Source of the DNA: an uncultured Candidatus Saccharibacteria bacterium
GTDB taxonomy: Bacteria; Patescibacteriota; Minisyncoccia; Phycocordibacterales; UBA918
Direction of reading: 5' to 3'
DNA: 42,978 bases
Assembly (NCBI GenBank): GCA_964576905.1
Contig: CAZNWG010000003.1
Coordinates: 1-42,978 of the forward strand
Within the stretch, counting starts at the first letter, position 1, and the number at the start of each line of letters is the position of its first letter. This document shows positions 52 through 39,823 of the stretch, one piece after another. The translations under genes were made by a program, and so were the position numbers. Under the pieces are notes generated by a model. That model had not been told where the DNA came from and did no database searches. It saw nothing but the letters and a program-made list of their open reading frames with translations.

Positions 52-82
52 AAAATTATGGACATCGGATGTCCATAATTTT
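52..82. repeat. REP-like palindromic element, copy 1. Core ATGGACATCGGATGTCCAT at 58-76, with arms extended to AAAATT...AATTTT.
   Basis: Perfect 15-bp arms around one central base, read directly from the sequence. The same 19-nt core recurs at 588, 788, 28026 and 39799. The element lies 8 nt downstream of the transposase stop codon (91-93). A degenerate half-copy (GACGGACATCCGAAG) sits at 37-50. Confidence 0.9.
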
Positions 83-814: not shown

Positions 815-3800
815 TCATTGGGGTTGGGGTGCGGACGTAGTGGCGAGGGATTTGATGCGGTCGATGACGACAGTGGGCTCCTCGTTCCGCATCGAGAGCT
901 TGCCCTGTACGGCGATGCAGGAGCCGACCGAAAAGAGGTCGTGGTGTGTTTTGTACGTTTCGGGGAACGCGACGATTTCGATACTCTCTTGCCCATCGCC
1001 AATCGTGATGAAGCCCATCTTGTCGCCCTTCTTGGTGAGGATTTCGTGTACGCCCTCCACCATTCCCGCGGTGACGACAGGGATGCCGTTTCGGGTCTCT
1101 CTCTTGATGGCGCCAATCTTGGGTCGCTTCTCTATCTCGGCACGGAACGCGTCGAGGGGGTGCCCCGAGACGTACACGCCGAGGAGCTCTTTCTCCCAGA
1201 GGAGCTTCTGCTCTTTTGTCGCGGGTTCCGCGGGAGCGAGTGAGAGCGTGTGCACCGAAGAGTCACCGAGACTGCCAAAGAGCGAGTCTTGCGCGGACTC
1301 CCTCTGTGCGCTGTGCTCCTTGTGGTAGGCGAGGAGCGTATCGAGGTTGCCGAGCATCTGCCCGCGCTCATGGAAACGGTCGAACGAGCCCGACATGATG
1401 AGTGCCTCGAGGGACTTCTTGTTGAGGTTTTTTGAGGTGACGCGGGAGAGGAAGTCTTGGAGAGAAGCATATGCGCCATGTTTTTTGCGTTCCTCGATGA
1501 TGGATTCAGAAATACCTTCGCCGAAATTCTTGATGGTAGTGAGTCCGAATCTAATCCTGGGAGACACACCTGCATGTGCAGGTACGACCGAGAACGGAGC
1601 AAAGCTCTCATTGATGTCCGGCGGGAGTACCTCAATACCCATGCGCACGCACTCTTGAATGATTTCGGCAATCTTCTCGGTGTCGCCCGCGTCGGCGGTG
1701 AGGACCGCGGACATGTACTCCTCGGGATAGTTCGCCTTCATGTAGGCGGTCTGGTATGCCACGCGCCCGTAGCTCGCCGCGTGTGCCTTGTTGAACCCGT
1801 ACGCGGCAAACGGCTCGATGAGCTTCCAGAGCTTGTCCGCGAGCGACGCGCTCAATTTTCCGTACTCGACAAAGCCCTTCAGGAGCTTTTCCTTCTCGGC
1901 CTCCATCACCGCGGGGATCTTCTTTCCCATTGCCTTTCGGAGCATATCGGCTTCGAGCCACGAGTAGCCGGCGAGCTCGCGCGCAATCATCATGACGTCA
2001 TCTTGGTAGGTAATCACCCCGTACGAACGGTCGAGTATCTTTTCGAGGCGCGGGTCGAGGTAGGAGATGAGCGAGGCATTGTGCTTGCGCTCGATGTACT
2101 GCGGAATGGATTCCATGGGCCCCGGGCGGTAGAGCGCGACCATCGCGTTGATGTCGTGGATGGTCGAGGGGCGGAGCTGTTTCAGAAAGGCGGTCATGCC
2201 ACTTCCGTTTAACTGGAAGAGTCCCATTGTTTCGCCACGCGCGAGCATTGCGAATGTGTTCGCGTCGTCGACGGGAATGTTTTCTATGTCGACCGCGATT
2301 CCGCGTATTTTTTCCACCCGCTTCACCGCGTCGGCGAGTATGGAAAGGTTTTTGATACCGAGAAAGTCGAACTTCAAAAGTCCCACGCCGTCTTCTCCCA
2401 CGGAGTGCATTTCGTACTGGGTGATGAGCTTCCCGGTCTTCGGGTCGGGCTGGACGGGGACGAATTCGGTGAGCGGGAGCGGGGAAATAACGACGCCCGC
2501 GGCGTGCACGCCGACGTGGCGCACGCGTCCCTCAATCTGACGCGCGAGGTCAATAACCTCTTTCGTGTCCGGATCCTTCGCGTAGAGAGTCTTGAGGTCG
2601 GGTTCTATTTCCATCGCTTTTTCGATGGTCATCGGGAACCCCTGACTCCCCATGGGGATGAGCTTCGCGATGCGGTCGCCCACGGCGTACGGGTGACCGA
2701 GAGCACGCGCGACGTCGCGCACCGCAGCGCGCGCCATCATGGTACCGAAGGTGCCAATCTGCGCGACGTTCTCCGCGCCGTACTTCGCGCGCGCGTAGTC
2801 GATAATCTCGTCGCGCCTGTTGTCGGCGAAGTCCATGTCGATGTCGGGGGCGGAGGGACGCTCGGGATTGAGAAAACGCTCGAAGGGAAGCTTGTACTCG
2901 AGCGGGTTCACGTTCGTGATGCCGAGCGCGTACGTGGTGAGCGAGCCAGCGACCGAGCCACGGATGGTGGTGAGGATTTTGCGCTCGCGTGCTTCGCGGA
3001 GGAGGTCACCCACCACGAGGAAGTACTTTGCGTAGCCCTTCATCTTGATGACGCCAAGCTCGTAGTCGAGGCGCTCTTTCACCTTTGCATCTCCGAGGGA
3101 AAGTCCGCGCCACTCAAGACCCTCGTACGCCATGTCGTGGAGTTCTGCGTCTGGCTCTTTGCCACTCTTGATGGCGTACTCGGGAAAGTACCATGTCGCA
3201 CCAGGGGTCATGGTGACGGTGCACTCCTCAGCAATTTTCACCGTATTGGCGAGGGCTTCTTTTCCCACAGTAGTCGCAAAGAGTTCCTGTGCTCGTTCTT
3301 GTGAGATGAACGAGAAGTTCGGCGCGAGCTCGCCTTTGGCGTCCTGTGTCTCCACAATGCCCCCCGATTGAATCTTGAGCATAGTCTCACGCGCGAGATA
3401 ATCACTCTGTTCGAGGTAGTACACGTCGTGCGAAGCGACGAGGGGTGTATTGGATTTTTCCGCGAGCGCCATGATGCTTTTTTGGAGTGCCTCGTGGCCG
3501 TCTATTTCCGGGTGGTGGGTGATTTCGAGATAGCAATCTTCACTGAAAAGTTTTTTGTACCAATCGAGCGACGCTCCCGCACTCTCCGCGTCTCCGTTTT
3601 TGAGCGAGAGTATCGGCTCACCACTGAAGGAGGGGATGATGCAGATAAGGTCCCTGTGGAATTCTTCGATGAGCCCGTGGTCGACACGGGGCTTGTAGTA
3701 GAAACCGTTCACGTACGACTCGGTGACCATCTTGATGAGGTTTTTGTAGCCGTCATTATTTTTCGCGAGGAAGACGACTCGTCCGCGCGGTTTGTCGATA

Positions 3801-4057
3801 CCCGCATCTTTGTCGAAGCGTGTGCGTGGCGCGAGGTAGGCGTCGAGGCCGATGATGGGCTTCACGCCCTCCTTCGTGCACGCTTTGTAGAAATTGATTG
3901 CCCCGTAGAGGCCTCCACTGTCGGTCAGTGCTAGGGCAGACATGCCATCGCGCTTCGCGCGCTGGGCAAGCTCCTTCGGGGTGGGGAGCGCATTGAGGAG
4001 GGAATAGTGCGAGTGCACGTGGAGGTGGATGAAGTTTGGTTTCGTAATCTCGCTCAT
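815..4057 (-). CDS. dnaE: DNA polymerase III alpha subunit
   Basis: 1080-aa ORF. It has an N-terminal PHP motif (HLHVHSHYSLL) and is polymerase-core-like throughout (FDFLGIKNL, ALYRPGPM, FNKAHAASY). Confidence 0.95.
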   Translation of the reverse strand: MSEITKPNFIHLHVHSHYSLLNALPTPKELAQRAKRDGMSALALTDSGGLYGAINFYKACTKEGVKPIIGLDAYLAPRTRFDKDAGIDKPRGRVVFLAKNNDGYKNLIKMVTESYVNGFYYKPRVDHGLIEEFHRDLICIIPSFSGEPILSLKNGDAESAGASLDWYKKLFSEDCYLEITHHPEIDGHEALQKSIMALAEKSNTPLVASHDVYYLEQSDYLARETMLKIQSGGIVETQDAKGELAPNFSFISQERAQELFATTVGKEALANTVKIAEECTVTMTPGATWYFPEYAIKSGKEPDAELHDMAYEGLEWRGLSLGDAKVKERLDYELGVIKMKGYAKYFLVVGDLLREARERKILTTIRGSVAGSLTTYALGITNVNPLEYKLPFERFLNPERPSAPDIDMDFADNRRDEIIDYARAKYGAENVAQIGTFGTMMARAAVRDVARALGHPYAVGDRIAKLIPMGSQGFPMTIEKAMEIEPDLKTLYAKDPDTKEVIDLARQIEGRVRHVGVHAAGVVISPLPLTEFVPVQPDPKTGKLITQYEMHSVGEDGVGLLKFDFLGIKNLSILADAVKRVEKIRGIAVDIENIPVDDANTFAMLARGETMGLFQLNGSGMTAFLKQLRPSTIHDINAMVALYRPGPMESIPQYIERKHNASLISYLDPRLEKILDRSYGVITYQDDVMMIARELAGYSWLEADMLRKAMGKKIPAVMEAEKEKLLKGFVEYGKLSASLADKLWKLIEPFAAYGFNKAHAASYGRVAYQTAYMKANYPEEYMSAVLTADAGDTEKIAEIIQECVRMGIEVLPPDINESFAPFSVVPAHAGVSPRIRFGLTTIKNFGEGISESIIEERKKHGAYASLQDFLSRVTSKNLNKKSLEALIMSGSFDRFHERGQMLGNLDTLLAYHKEHSAQRESAQDSLFGSLGDSSVHTLSLAPAEPATKEQKLLWEKELLGVYVSGHPLDAFRAEIEKRPKIGAIKRETRNGIPVVTAGMVEGVHEILTKKGDKMGFITIGDGQESIEIVAFPETYKTHHDLFSVGSCIAVQGKLSMRNEEPTVVIDRIKSLATTSAPQPQ

Positions 4058-25885: not shown

Positions 25886-27181
25886 ATGGCAAAAAAGGTG
25901 GTAGCACAAAAGAAAAAAGTAGCAAAAAAGTCGCCTGCAAAAAAGGCGATTATTAAGTCAGCGCCAAAGAGACAGGTTGCACCAAAAAAAGCACCTGCTA
26001 AAAAAGTGGCCAAAAAAGTTGCCGTCATAAAGAAAAAAGTTGTCGCCAAAAAAGTGGCACCAAAAAAAGCACCCGCTAAAAAAGTTGTCACTAAGAAACT
26101 TTCAAAATCAGAATTACTGCAAGAGCATAAAGCAAGCTCACTTTTGACTCTGGGAAGAACACGTGGATATGTGACATACGATGAAATACTCAAAGAGTTC
26201 CCACAGGTGGAACGCGATATTACGTTCCTCGAAAATCTCTATGAGCGTCTCGCGACTGCGAGTATTGATATTATTGGCGGTGGTGGTATGCTCGGTGATG
26301 AACAAGACAGTGGGCTTCTCGATCGAAAGAATGTATACAAGCGCAGTGATAGCGCGTACGACTCTATTCAGATGTACCTGCGCGAAATCGGCCAGTACCC
26401 ACTCCTCACCGCGCACGAAGAGCGTGTGCTTGCGAAGCGTATCGTCGACGGTGACACCGAAGCGCGTAATCTCCTAGCGCGCGCTAATCTCCGCCTCGTC
26501 GTCTCGATTGCAAAGAAGTACGTGGGGCGCAGTCCCGACCTCACTTTGCTCGACCTCATTCAGGAGGGGAACCTCGGACTCTTTAAGGCCGTCGATAAGT
26601 TTGACTTTACGAAGGGTTTCAAGTTTTCGACCTATGCGACGTGGTGGATACGACAGGCAATTACTCGTGCTTTGGCCGACCAGTCACGCACCATTCGCAT
26701 TCCCGTACACATGGTAGAAACCATGGCGAAGTACAAGCAGGTCGCCCGCCGTCTCGCGCAGGACTTAGGCCGTGACCCGATGGCGGAAGAGATTGCGACC
26801 GAAATGGATGTGGAGGTGGAGAAAATCTACCAGATTGAAAAAATCAGTCAGGACACTATCTCGCTTGAGCTCCCGATTGGGGACGACGATGACCGCTCAC
26901 GTCTCTCAGACTTCATTGCGGATGACAAGATAATGTCTCCCGATCAAGAAGTTGCCCACCGCATCCTTGCCGACCAGATGCAGGAGATACTCGAATCGCT
27001 CTCCGAAAAAGAGCGAAAGATTCTCGAGATGCGCCACGGACTCCTCGATGGTACATACCATACCCTTGAAGAGGTGGGTAAAGAGTTTGGCGTCACCCGC
27101 GAGCGTATTCGACAGATTGAGGCAAAGGCACTCGAGAAGATACGCCAGCACGACAAGGCGAGGAGGTTGAAGAGTTACTAA
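25886..27181 (+). CDS. rpoD: Primary RNA polymerase sigma factor (sigma-70 family), with a Lys/Ala-rich basic N-terminal tail
   Basis: Regions 1.2-4.2 are recognisable ([63 protein letters not shown]). It sits downstream of dnaG, as in the classic dnaG-rpoD arrangement. Confidence 0.95.
27096..27181 (+). repeat. Direct repeat A (86 nt): the last 28 codons plus stop of the expressed rpoD
   Basis: Identical to 27936-27993 over the first 58 nt. There are 7 mismatches in the last 28 nt, all synonymous. Confidence 0.95.
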
Positions 27182-27279
27182 TTGTTAATTAGGATTACTT
27201 TATCAATTTGTTGAATCTTGTATACTGTAATTAAATTAAGTTGTAGAGTTACGCATGATTAAATATTTGAATAAATTAT

Positions 27280-27498
27280 ATGAAAGAATATACAAGTTTT
27301 ACACTTAGATTGTTTAAAAAACAGAAAACATCACCATTTATTGAAGGAATGGCTTCTATTCTTGACAATTCAAATTCTGATTATAAATACAATTTTGACA
27401 AAACTGATTCTGATGCTGATAGAAAATCTATACAAGCAGATTGGAAACAAGTTGGTGCAGATTTACAAACTGTTATGATGCAACATGCCACAAAGTGA
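27280..27498 (+). CDS. Hypothetical small protein (72 aa), first gene of the insertion cassette
   Basis: An ORF in AT-rich DNA whose 3' end overlaps the downstream ORF's start by 14 nt. Its C-terminus reads DRKSIQADWKQVGADLQTVM. No family is assigned with confidence. Confidence 0.5.
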   Translation: MKEYTSFTLRLFKKQKTSPFIEGMASILDNSNSDYKYNFDKTDSDADRKSIQADWKQVGADLQTVMMQHATK

Positions 27499-27916
27499 AA
27501 AACAAGATGAAGGTGTTGAGATTGTTAAAGAACAACGAGCATCGTCTGAGCAACAACTTGTATCTGCAGAATATTACGAAGGCATCATACCTCACCCACG
27601 CCTAATGAGAGAATGGGAAGAAGTGGTTCCTGGTTCAGCAGACTCTATTTTTAAGCGTTTTGAAGAGCAGTCCAAACATCGTATAAAAATTGAAGAAAAG
27701 GTTGTTGGTGCAAATAACTTTAAACTCATTATTGGTCCGATATTTGCATTCATCATTGCGATGACAACTATTGGCGGTGGTATTTGGATTGCTTTAGCAA
27801 CGCCAACAACAGCTGGAGCAATATTGGGAGGATTTTTAACCTTATCTGGATTAGGTACTGTCGTCACTCCATTTCTCGTGACAGAGTTTAGAAAGAAAAA
27901 AGAAGATAATAGCTGA
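27485..27916 (+). CDS. DUF2335-like membrane protein (143 aa, two predicted C-terminal TM helices)
   Basis: YEGIIPHPRLMREWEEVVPGSADSIFKRFEEQSKHRIKIEE resembles the conserved DUF2335 N-terminal block as I recall it (P-P..L..Y....PG.a..I....E.E..HR). Two hydrophobic segments follow (IIGPIFAFIIAMTTIGGGIWIAL and GAILGGFLTLSGLGTVVTPFLV). Confidence 0.6.
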   Translation: MPQSEKQDEGVEIVKEQRASSEQQLVSAEYYEGIIPHPRLMREWEEVVPGSADSIFKRFEEQSKHRIKIEEKVVGANNFKLIIGPIFAFIIAMTTIGGGIWIALATPTTAGAILGGFLTLSGLGTVVTPFLVTEFRKKKEDNS

Positions 27917-27935
27917 ACTATTAAAGGACTTCTAG

Positions 27936-28021
27936 CCCGCGAGCGTATTCGACAGATTGAGGCAAAGGCACTCGAGAAGATACGCCAGCACGATAAGGCG
28001 CGGAGATTGAAGTCGTACTAG
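27936..28021 (+). repeat. Direct repeat B (86 nt): an orphan second copy of the rpoD 3' end, with no upstream rpoD sequence
   Basis: Encodes the same peptide (..[27 protein letters not shown]) as repeat A, using different codons for D, R, R, S and the stop. A REP hairpin and a terminator follow it. Confidence 0.95.
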
Positions 28022-28048
28022 AATTATGGACATCCGATGTCCATAATT
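28022..28048. repeat. REP-like palindromic element, copy 4 (core at 28026-28044)
   Basis: AATTATGGACATCCGATGTCCATAATT followed by TTTTT. It starts 1 nt after the TAG of repeat B. Confidence 0.9.
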
Positions 28049-28052
28049 TTTT

Positions 28053-28091
28053 AAAAACGCGCGGGTTGCCTTTGGCAATCCGCGCGTTTTC
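28053..28091 (+). terminator. Rho-independent terminator (native rpoD terminator)
   Basis: AAAACGCGCGGGTTGCC-ttt-GGCAATCCGCGCGTTTT, a 17-bp stem including one G-U pair. Confidence 0.8.
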
Positions 28092-28146: not shown

Positions 28147-28809
28147 CTACTCAGTCACTACCTCTAGTTTCGGGAGGATATGTGCAAGTGCACAAGCAAG
28201 GATTTCCTCATCAGTGCCACTTGCGGGAATTCTTTTCACGCACTGTCTGGGATCTTTGGCGTATGTCTTGAAGGCTTCGCCCCAGAAAATCGCTCGTTCC
28301 CTCTGCGCCTCTTTGTCTGGACCATCTGGAATTGATTCCGGATCGACCTCCAAATAGAGGTAGATTGGGGGATAGATTCCCATGCCGAAGACGCACGCAC
28401 TGACGATTGCATCATGAAGTGCAATGAGCATCGTACGCATTTTTTCTGTCTTCGCTTGTGCCAGAGCATGGATAAGTACAGAGCCCCCGAAACCGACCAT
28501 TACGACCGGTGTGTTCTTGGTAAGGCAAGGCACGATATCTTCGATGATGATCAACACCAGGCGCGCCCAGAATAGAAATAGCTGGGCAATCGGATGAATG
28601 AAATCATTGAAAAGACCCATCTTTGAGATGGCTGTGATGCCCCTGACCACAGGATTGCCATTCTCCCCTTGGTGCGCCCCTGTGTCGAAGACAAAACTAC
28701 AATGGGACAATCGCGGATCTTCTTGCAGGCCTCTGCTGAGTGTCGATTTCTTATCGTGGCATGTTCCGACGATTGCGACAAACAGAGGGTTGTTAGTGCT
28801 GAGTGACAT
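28147..28809 (-). CDS. Thymidylate-kinase-like P-loop protein with degenerate motifs
   Basis: The overall layout resembles dTMP kinase (FVAIVGTCHDKKST.., LFLFWARL...IVPCL, YLYLEVDPE). However, Walker A reads GTCHDKKST rather than GxxGxGKST, and GFG replaces the DRY/DRF motif. A good SD (AGGGAG) sits upstream of the ATG. Confidence 0.6.
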   Translation of the reverse strand: MSLSTNNPLFVAIVGTCHDKKSTLSRGLQEDPRLSHCSFVFDTGAHQGENGNPVVRGITAISKMGLFNDFIHPIAQLFLFWARLVLIIIEDIVPCLTKNTPVVMVGFGGSVLIHALAQAKTEKMRTMLIALHDAIVSACVFGMGIYPPIYLYLEVDPESIPDGPDKEAQRERAIFWGEAFKTYAKDPRQCVKRIPASGTDEEILACALAHILPKLEVVTE

Positions 28810-39792: not shown

Positions 39793-39823
39793 AAAAATAT
39801 GGACATCGGATGTCCATATTTTT
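39793..39823. repeat. REP-like palindromic element, copy 5 (core at 39799-39817)
   Basis: AAAAATATGGACATCGGATGTCCATATTTTT lies between convergent genes. Its central base orientation matches copy 1 and is opposite to copies 2-4. Confidence 0.9.

Follow-up and report, generated by a model that had tools for sequence, protein, structure and literature searches.

How does DNA of foreign composition come to lie at the 3' end of rpoD, the gene for the primary sigma factor, between two copies of the gene end that encode the same peptide? The question is raised by a stretch of 42,978 nucleotides from contig CAZNWG010000003.1 (assembly GCA_964576905.1; this whole stretch is referred to here as the window), in which a complete rpoD gene is followed by an AT-rich cassette of two genes and then by a second copy of its own last 86 nt. 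The incoming DNA carried its own version of the rpoD end, which replaced the native end and left the protein unchanged, and we suggest that the cassette may descend from a temperate phage or integrative element. An earlier note on the window, made from its letters alone, had proposed an insertion of this general kind; its claims are taken up where the evidence bears on them.

The rpoD end and the cassette behind it

The features at the rpoD end are as follows:

25886-27181, + strand: rpoD, primary sigma-70 gene, complete, 431 amino acids (aa) (open reading frame (ORF); Pfam Sigma70_r1_1, r1_2, r2, r3 and r4); its last 28 nt are the incoming tail
27096-27181, + strand: copy A of the repeat (like a left attachment site, attL); core identical to copy B
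27154-27181, + strand: tail A, element-borne replacement rpoD end, GAC AAG GCG AGG AGG TTG AAG AGT TAC TAA
27182-27935, + strand: AT-rich insert, 754 bp, 33.7% G+C, without terminal inverted repeats and with no non-coding ends conserved with related cassettes
27280-27498, + strand: small ORF, 72 aa, first cassette gene (ORF call); overlaps the next gene by 14 nt
27485-27916, + strand: DUF2335 membrane protein, 143 aa, second cassette gene (PF10097, E = 1.6e-9)
27936-28021, + strand: copy B of the repeat (like a right attachment site, attR); displaced native rpoD 3' end, now non-coding
27994-28021, + strand: tail of copy B, GAT AAG GCG CGG AGA TTG AAG TCG TAC TAG
28022-28090, + strand: native rpoD 3' flank, with a hairpin like repetitive extragenic palindromic (REP) sequences at 28022-28050 and then a G+C-rich hairpin with a T run at 28054-28090

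A scripted alignment sets the two copies in register, 840 bp apart from start to start, and reproduces every position in the earlier note, which had described 86-bp repeats that share an identical stretch of 58 nt and differ at seven sites. The identical stretch (27096-27153 in copy A) forms the first part of each copy, and the mismatches (C/T at 27154, A/C at 27161, G/A at 27166, A/T, G/C and T/G at 27173-27175, and A/G at 27181) are all silent in the rpoD frame. Both copies encode the same 27-residue peptide, and re-alignment gave no non-synonymous difference, in agreement with the silent-only divergence that had been noted. In simulations, the chance that seven random substitutions are all silent is ~1e-5, and the chance that all seven mismatches fall within the last 28 of the 86 nt is 2e-4. 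The pattern of the repeats is, in other words, far from chance. Homology between the copies ends sharply, on the left at position -1 and on the right directly after the stop codon. The repeat corresponds to RpoD residues ~404-431 and spans the end of the Pfam Sigma70_r4 domain (residues 369-421), which bears out its earlier assignment to sigma-70 region 4.2.

The DNA between the copies is foreign in composition. Its G+C content is 33.7% (window, 49.2%; rpoD, 49.7%), and in a windowed profile it is the lowest-G+C stretch of the whole 43 kb; an estimate by eye of about one third against about half had been close. The DUF2335 protein encoded by the second gene also matches phrog_3996, a 'membrane protein' of the moron category (E = 1.3e-23), and has no NCBIfam or PADLOC match. 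The product of the 72-aa ORF has a weak match to phrog_26284 and none in Pfam, NCBIfam or PADLOC. The AlphaFold model of the 143-aa protein is a helical hairpin of low confidence (pLDDT 68, pTM 0.35), and that of the 72-aa ORF (pLDDT 54) is not usable. Our guess is that the cassette proteins have a membrane-level role in phage exclusion or lysogenic conversion. A reading of DUF2335 as a phospholipase toxin domain was set aside: the papers in question concern large secreted effectors, a misfit to a 143-aa two-helix membrane protein, and we suspect that their 'DUF2335' meant a different DUF number. Scanned at Rfam gathering scores, the whole window and two contigs with related cassettes (L003 and L139), including the insert and the regions downstream of rpoD, gave no match, and a comparison of the non-coding ends in the window and in the closest related cassette (L003) found nothing conserved beyond ~20 nt before the start codon. 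As a separate observation, the TGA stop of the DUF2335 gene is in frame with copy B (27914-27937), and read-through would add TIKGLLA and the 27 copy-B residues; the shared frame is probably a coincidence with a 1-in-3 chance.

The earlier note had placed the native hairpin after copy B and not after copy A, and this is what we find. The hairpin ATTATGGACATCCGATGTCCATAAT (28022-28050) lies directly 3' of copy B, and ATTATGGACATCCGATGTCCATAAT and its variants form a family of perfect palindromes of 25-31 nt with five copies in the window (52-82, 582-612, 782-812, 28020-28050 and 39793-39823), at least one of which lies directly after a stop codon. The family looks like this genome's REP-like or terminator hairpins, and because there are five copies in the window, the hairpin after copy B belongs to the host. 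A simple terminator scan called neither of the two hairpins 3' of copy B.

Independent contigs, empty sites and the native end of rpoD

Could the arrangement have been produced during assembly, with two strain variants of the rpoD end stitched around an unrelated AT-rich sequence? The window comes from a metagenome-type assembly, and related contigs break at or near the repeat, both of which would fit such an artefact. Against it stand short contigs with the exact DUF2335 protein and the exact small ORF, found in separate MEGAHIT assemblies of one European Nucleotide Archive (ENA) series:

L001, ERZ27258524: 3' part of rpoD, repeat c1, full insert, repeat c2, insert start
L002, ERZ27258528: insert, copy B, terminator, downstream gene
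L136, ERZ27258489: full rpoD, copy A, part of the insert
L137, ERZ27258486: 3' part of rpoD, copy A, insert start
L144, ERZ27258480: internal to the insert

The junction of rpoD, copy A and the insert is reproduced in L001, L136 and L137, and that of the insert, copy B and the terminator in L002, in which the native flank 28022-28090 is 100% identical to the window. In the covered parts, the insert of L001, L002, L136 and L137 equals that of the window, and L144 has a single-nucleotide polymorphism (SNP) at 27312. Both junctions thus recur in assemblies of other samples, made with a k-mer length (k = 141) that exceeds the 86-nt repeat, and the insert holds a conserved, intact gene pair. These data settle a concern about misassembly that the earlier note had raised and make an artefact hardly credible. 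The insertion is real and recent, and it is neither an artefact nor an old duplication.

Empty sites, for which the earlier note had suggested a search in relatives, are present. A scan of one genome per species with the coding pattern of an 18-residue segment of the RpoD tail gave 119 loci, nearly all labelled Patescibacteria. The cassette is present in none of these 119 species-level rpoD loci, 92 of which have at least 1 kb of downstream sequence, and in ~100 related species a terminator follows directly after rpoD. The nearest RpoD relatives have the stop codon and then the terminator hairpin, namely L042 (88% aa identity), L064 (87%), L108 (86%; a Kaiserbacteria metagenome-assembled genome) and L141-143 (90%). 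A search of the 119 loci with a 45-aa tail gave no second tail; a more sensitive scan, described below, detected short displaced tails in eight.

Which of the two tails is native? Tail A is invariant in every insert-carrying contig, and its nearest natural counterparts are the rpoD tails of two other Paceibacteria (L025 and L046; 27 of 30 nt). The copy-B tail is variable. Its form in L002, GATAAAGCTAGAAGACTAAAGTCGTACTAA (GAT AAA GCT AGA AGA CTA AAG TCG TAC TAA), is nearly that of the native rpoD tail of L140 (GAT AAA GCT AGA AGA CTA AAG TCT TAC TAG), a sister lineage with 98% aa identity in RpoD and 90% identity in rpoD DNA. For tails A and B alike, genuine rpoD genes of other Paceibacteria have ends of the same kind. 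Because tail A is invariant and the B tails match the sister lineage, the tail of copy A arrived with the insert and copy B is the host's own end. Copy B is thus the displaced native tail together with its native hairpins, and rpoD now ends in the incoming tail. With the empty sites in relatives, this supports the earlier proposal that the element brings its own gene end and regenerates rpoD.

Copy B has itself been the site of change. Copy B of L002 (617-702) and copy B of the window (27936-28021) differ at 10 of 86 positions, all silent, and the flanks of the two are identical over 616 nt before and 535 nt after. A similar divergent patch between strains is present in rpoD itself, with 12 differences within 26500-26686. 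Because the patch in copy B lies between identical flanks, it seems that the untranslated copy was exchanged with a different functional rpoD allele or that the insertion hit two different alleles.

Alternatively, the rpoD end could have been duplicated locally long ago and become fixed, or copy B could serve as a functional second 3' end, the cassette being a long-time resident in either case. This would account for a copy-B peptide that is still perfectly encoded and for the linkage of the cassette to rpoD in three lineages. However, the sister species are all without the arrangement, the composition of the insert is foreign, and a stop codon and 754 bp of other genes separate copy B from rpoD. 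Moreover, an untranslated copy would not remain silent-only, and the equivalent displaced tail in one related species (L112) is already frameshifted. We therefore consider this explanation very improbable.

The RpoD of the window has 86-98% aa identity to Kaiserbacteria-like RpoD, and these nearest relatives point to a Kaiserbacteria-like member of the Paceibacteria (candidate phyla radiation) as the window organism. The N-terminus of the protein (25886-26100) is a lysine/alanine-rich repeat region made from 15-21-nt DNA repeats, with a weak match to the Pfam family HC2 (histone-H1-like), and it varies in length between strains (431 aa in the window, 451 aa in L136). Downstream of the displaced tail lies a 220-aa ORF (28147-28809, - strand) with no match in Pfam, NCBIfam or PADLOC.

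Probable origin and possible movement of the cassette

Homologues of the DUF2335 protein, with 36-66% identity, are encoded on other Patescibacteria contigs in varied locations:

L003: cassette 220 nt after the rpoD stop; DUF2335 66% identity
L138/L139: cassette 85 nt after the rpoD stop; DUF2335 51% identity
L012: cassette 34 nt after gyrA
L004-L007 and L135: cassette between a DEAD-box helicase gene and the rpmB 3' end
L013: cassette adjoins the ndk 3' end

A homologue of the small ORF always precedes the DUF2335 gene in the eight contig groups examined and in phages, and in all eight groups the G+C content of the cassette is 4-15 points below that of its host surroundings. Flanking repeats around the related cassettes were found at none of L003, L004, L006, L012, L013, L138/L139 and L135. 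An anti-sigma factor, which a membrane protein encoded after a sigma gene might bring to mind, was set aside, since the cassette also lies after gyrA, next to rpmB and next to ndk.

In phages, the pair has the following positions:

Streptococcus Javan433 and relatives: pair after lysin, at the prophage end opposite the integrase
Lactococcus proPhi6 and D6890: pair after lysin
Pseudomonas MD8: pair ~450 nt from the integrase gene

The phage module (phrog_3996) consists of the same two overlapping genes of the same sizes (~70 aa and ~143 aa), with 32% identity in the DUF2335 protein (E = 1e-20) and a weak match in the small ORF, and it lies at a prophage end or beside the integrase. By contrast, the pair in the window stands alone between two repeats, without other phage genes. 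The cargo is thus of a phage type, and the pair is a typical attachment-site-proximal accessory ('moron') module of temperate phages. Because the cargo is a pair that sits beside phage attachment sites, ancestry in a temperate element is most likely.

In the model that we favor, and to which we assign a probability of about 0.5, an integrase-bearing temperate phage or integrative element had the rpoD end as its bacterial attachment site (attB), carried a gene-restoring attachment site of its own (attP), and was later reduced to an integrase-less remnant of attL, moron pair and attR, i.e. to the state of a cis-mobilisable element (CIME). In this model, a foreign unit of 840 bp, made up of an 86-nt copy of the rpoD end and the 754-bp two-gene cassette, would have recombined with the rpoD 3' end in Campbell fashion, with the crossover somewhere in the 58 nt over which the two copies now match perfectly. 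The rpoD frame would then run from host sequence into the tail of copy A, with its stop at 27181 and an unchanged sigma-70 protein, while the native tail with its own hairpins (copy B) would have been pushed 840 bp downstream and would no longer be translated. The two repeat copies may still recombine, giving rise to a circle or a tandem copy. We infer that a site-specific recombinase made the insertion and that a larger element was cut down to the present unit.

Recombination between the copies is suggested by contig L001, in which rpoD is followed by c1, the full insert, c2 (a third copy of the repeat) and the first 47 nt of the insert again. Repeat c2 is a hybrid: close to the 5' end it has GCGCATCC, which copy B of that population shares, and then tail A; c1 carries GCGTATTC. 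The hybrid is the junction that an excised circle (attP) or a tandem dimer would have to contain. With k = 141 and a repeat of 86 nt, the k-mers at the junction must derive from reads that span the whole repeat, and the junction is probably real. It would fit a circle or a tandem copy, made by a site-specific enzyme or by RecA alike, and the repeat copies appear to recombine or to have recombined. Of the excision event that the earlier note had envisaged, the junction of insert end, repeat and insert start is thus present in L001, but a tandem dimer gives the same sequence.

A recombinase with access to the rpoD end may exist in a relative. Of the 91 ORFs that lie no more than 2.5 kb downstream of rpoD, two encode large serine recombinases (in L016 and L128). 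The one in L016 was rejected as a user of rpoD and is tied to the adjacent tRNA gene instead. In L128 (3695-8000 of contig CAYUNN010000003.1), only 37 nt separate the stop codon of rpoD from the start of a phage-like element, whose genes encode a helix-turn-helix (HTH) protein, a replication initiator and a large serine integrase (phrog_95, E = 7.7e-74). L128 also has an RpoD tail that is atypical for its clade, KGLTKLKGYK before the stop, the sisters having ALKKLKGY. This element is a candidate integrase-bearing user of the rpoD end.

Several observations weigh against descent from an integrase-bearing element. The element in L128 has been read at its near end alone, its far end being unread. 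No integrase-bearing relative with the rpoD repeat of the window was found. Neither the insert nor any of 24 window ORFs scanned against Pfam encodes a recombinase or integrase, as the earlier note had said of the insert and its neighbourhood; these ORFs are housekeeping genes (dnaE, rnhB, nusB, rnc, smc, rnr, rpsP, dnaG, hisS, transporters and a helicase-nuclease), and rpoB and rpoC, identified from their ORFs, were left out of the scan. Two degenerate coding patterns of the rpoD tail, searched against IMG/VR for a phage with an rpoD end, gave nothing, as did the cassette profile against IMG/VR viral contigs, and the insert DNA had no match among GenBank phages. The search for the insert at other loci, which the earlier note had proposed, gave no second copy at another locus or in another species. 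The cassettes of L003 (220 nt) and L138/L139 (85 nt) lie downstream of rpoD without a repeat, and the linkage of cassette and rpoD could be ancestral in the donor lineage and not the mark of an attachment site. Finally, the junction in L001 is known from one short, low-coverage MEGAHIT contig, and since the 58-nt identical core is long enough for RecA, it is no proof of a site-specific enzyme. Of the earlier suggestion of a decayed remnant or a non-autonomous cassette, an integrase-less foreign insert with empty sites in relatives stands, but no integrase of this specificity has been found.

The main alternative, possible if doubtful, is that the transfer was driven by homology alone: a donor rpoD end and the cassette that was its ordinary chromosomal neighbour would have been integrated by general recombination, with the highly conserved 3' end of rpoD as the anchor and with neither a dedicated recombinase nor an attachment site. 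The repeat-less cassettes directly downstream of rpoD in two divergent lineages (L003 and L138/L139) would fit, as would the 58-nt core, which is 100% identical and a usable RecA substrate, and the failure to find an integrase or conserved non-coding ends. The population is, moreover, a mosaic in which rpoD and copy B have patches of 6-12% divergence between otherwise identical flanks. As for the route, we can tentatively imagine that a single crossover of a circularised fragment or an unequal exchange duplicated the 86 nt, and that later RecA exchange gave the tandem or circle junction. However, the uptake of linear DNA replaces rather than duplicates, and a circular 840-bp intermediate must be assumed; the cargo is also of a kind that rides on integrase-bearing phages. 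In addition, small inserts at the same gene end in other species have tail copies without an identical run long enough for RecA (5 nt in L120), and their right-hand junction lies at the same codon in four species.

These small inserts were found by scanning the 119 loci downstream of rpoD for places where the last nine codons and the stop recur in frame, with the opposite strand as the null, which gave no copies. Second tails are present in L055, L072, L088, L110, L120, L105 and L107, and a frameshifted copy in L112. Small non-coding inserts thus occupy the rpoD tail in 8 of 111 related species, where 50-110 nt separate the stop of rpoD from a second, displaced version of its final 7-15 codons:

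L088:1714-1878, + strand: E1 small insert
L055:4237-4401, - strand: E1 small insert
L120:5764-5929, + strand: E1 small insert
L112:2960-3130, - strand: E1 small insert with a frameshifted displaced tail
L072:7612-7783, + strand: E2 small insert
L110:4291-4483, + strand: E2 small insert
L105:6115-6230, + strand: E3 small insert
L107:616-726, - strand: E3 small insert

The second tails lie 42-124 nt after the real stop and are followed by the native terminator. They differ from the real tails at 4-9 positions, all silent, including one TCA/AGC serine switch. In a tree, the carriers are interspersed with element-free sister species, and matching empty sites are available in L104 for L088 and in L108 for L072, where the native tail of the sister and its downstream sequence align with the second copy of the carrier and its downstream sequence. 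By these alignments, the small inserts, too, consist of a replacement tail and an insert ahead of a displaced native tail.

E1 and E2 can be aligned with each other, and the E1 fold is very stable (z = -6.9 and -6.1). In the E1 consensus fold, the replacement codons GGCAAGGAGA pair with UCUCCUUGC of the element, with a compensatory change of A-U to C-G at this place in L120; the stop codon lies in a hairpin loop, and the stem follows the synonymous codon choice. A further hairpin has the conserved loop CCCUCGGUAGGUC, and double changes occur at 18 of the 40 predicted pairs. The small elements match no Rfam family. A match to the E1 loop motif in an IMG/VR scan (L150) was discarded as chance, being without the hairpin context. 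Tail A and the start of the insert in the window have no E1-like fold (z = -0.1), and the window cassette is thus not an E1-type element. Together, the inserts suggest that foreign DNA lands repeatedly at the end of rpoD in this group.

Conserved non-coding sequences also lie 3' of rpoD in several Paceibacteria (L003:128-347, L108, L071, L030 and L077); those of L088 (after copy 2) and L104 are of a second type. One of the types reads ...CCTCACCGTAC..GTACGGCTC... and another ...GTGTWATACCTCGC..ACGCGTTCAATTTT..AAATTGCCGCTATGCTCGAA.... These sequences, which may be small RNA genes, are not present in the window, and L003 and L088, scanned at the Rfam gathering score, gave no match.

A comparable insertion exists at another gene. 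L008 and L009 carry an insert of 1.7 kb that has bPH_2 and TPR genes and no integrase, and 58-nt copies of the end of rpmB, the gene for ribosomal protein L28, flank it. The copies are 84% identical, with differences that are nearly all synonymous and one conservative change near the boundary:

L009:1788-1845 and 3570-3627: rpmB repeats
L008:1973-2030 and 3755-3812: rpmB repeats
L004:8420-8700: rpmB empty site

The rpmB insert has the same architecture as the one at rpoD, with a different gene, cargo and lineage.

Might the 840-bp unit, then, be an active, non-autonomous mini-cassette that excises as a circle and reinserts in rpoD ends by means of a recombinase supplied in trans by the host, a phage or another element? 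This would fit the hybrid junction in L001, an insert that is near-invariant over six samples (its one SNP is in L144) next to a variable rpoD and copy B, the second case with other cargo at rpmB with L004 as its matching empty site, and the small inserts that eight other species have in this rpoD tail. By contrast, the six samples represent one study and one species-level population, with no spread between hosts shown; no second insertion site and no candidate recombinase were found; and unequal crossing-over may have made the junction as a tandem duplication. The small elements, moreover, would give circles of 125 nt, an implausible substrate, and would need another route. We regard continued activity of the unit as unlikely, and we are equally sceptical that it belongs to a wider class of small integrase-less cassettes at the 3' ends of housekeeping genes in candidate-phyla-radiation bacteria.

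More speculatively than in the case of a reduced temperate element, the sigma-70 gene end could be the dedicated target of a set of small integrase-less mobile units in Paceibacteria, as yet undescribed, each of which would recode the last 7-28 RpoD codons. The 840-bp cassette would be a cargo-carrying member that is still moving and the ~100-nt E1-E3 inserts non-coding members, and the rpmB case would suggest the same mode at other housekeeping genes.

Significance and comparison with known systems

We found no earlier description of integration into an essential primary sigma gene within the region coding for the helix-turn-helix. Such an insertion would be tolerated because the incomer restores the protein exactly. 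How candidate-phyla-radiation bacteria, whose genomes have ~1 Mb, acquire genes is, to our knowledge, very poorly understood. The locus offers a concrete route of gene acquisition: its site occurs both filled and empty, the displaced native tail provides a clock, and there may be an excision product. Its recurrence, with inserts in eight other species, an E1 fold that includes the replaced codons and an integrase-encoding element in L128, makes the question of the catalyst directly testable, the 58-nt core being a defined substrate for recombination and the metagenome samples a source of material. The wider pattern of small inserts makes the rpoD locus more interesting than a lone prophage scar. 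Even if it were a decayed prophage scar, it would still be a tidy case of a phage accessory gene pair kept in a streamlined genome.

Three classes of mobile DNA were considered and rejected. The 86-nt repeat is not an integron attC site: it does not fold into a hairpin, and both strands of both copies behave like shuffled sequence in folding energy (z -0.8 to +0.5). A diversity-generating retroelement would not fit mismatches that are all silent and not adenine-specific, and no reverse transcriptase is present among the ORFs. An insertion sequence or miniature inverted-repeat transposable element (MITE) is at odds with the lack of an inverted repeat at the insert ends and with a 'duplication' of 86 nt that has silently diverged. 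In other respects, the unit resembles integron cassettes, which have 0.5-1 kb, one or two genes without their own recombinase and a fixed insertion site, and it may share their circular intermediate; it differs from them in that the window has no integron integrase or attI and in that the recombination site is coding sequence of the target gene.

The earlier note knew of no element class that targets rpoD. Likewise, our literature search found no paper that names rpoD as an attachment site or integration target, a gap in the searched literature that is no proof of absence. Integrative elements at the 3' ends of other protein genes include phage 21 at icd, ICESt1/3 at fda and SGI1 at trmE. A close parallel is provided by icd of Escherichia coli, the target of phage 21 and of prophage e14. 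Prophage e14 supplies the 3' end of the gene, and a 163-bp pseudo-icd is left at its far side (PMC6379469). As at rpoD, the element's own gene end keeps the gene intact, the displaced native end remains as a pseudo-fragment, and the two copies differ mainly at silent sites. Direct repeats of the gene end around an intact gene, and empty sites, are thus common ground, while an element-encoded integrase is absent here: the unit in the window has 840 bp and neither integrase nor excisionase. Its target is, moreover, a primary sigma factor gene, and its host a candidate-phyla-radiation bacterium.

The reduced state that we propose for the unit has a counterpart in the CIMEs of streptococci, in which attL and attR are kept and the genes for integration and transfer are gone (PMC5704250). 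The difference is that the descent of the window unit from a larger element is a proposal, that no partner with a matching integrase is known, and that its candidate parent is phage-like and not conjugative. In its design, the unit nevertheless follows that of a CIME, in that it retains attL- and attR-like repeats without integration or transfer genes. CIMEs can also form tandem arrays with related elements.

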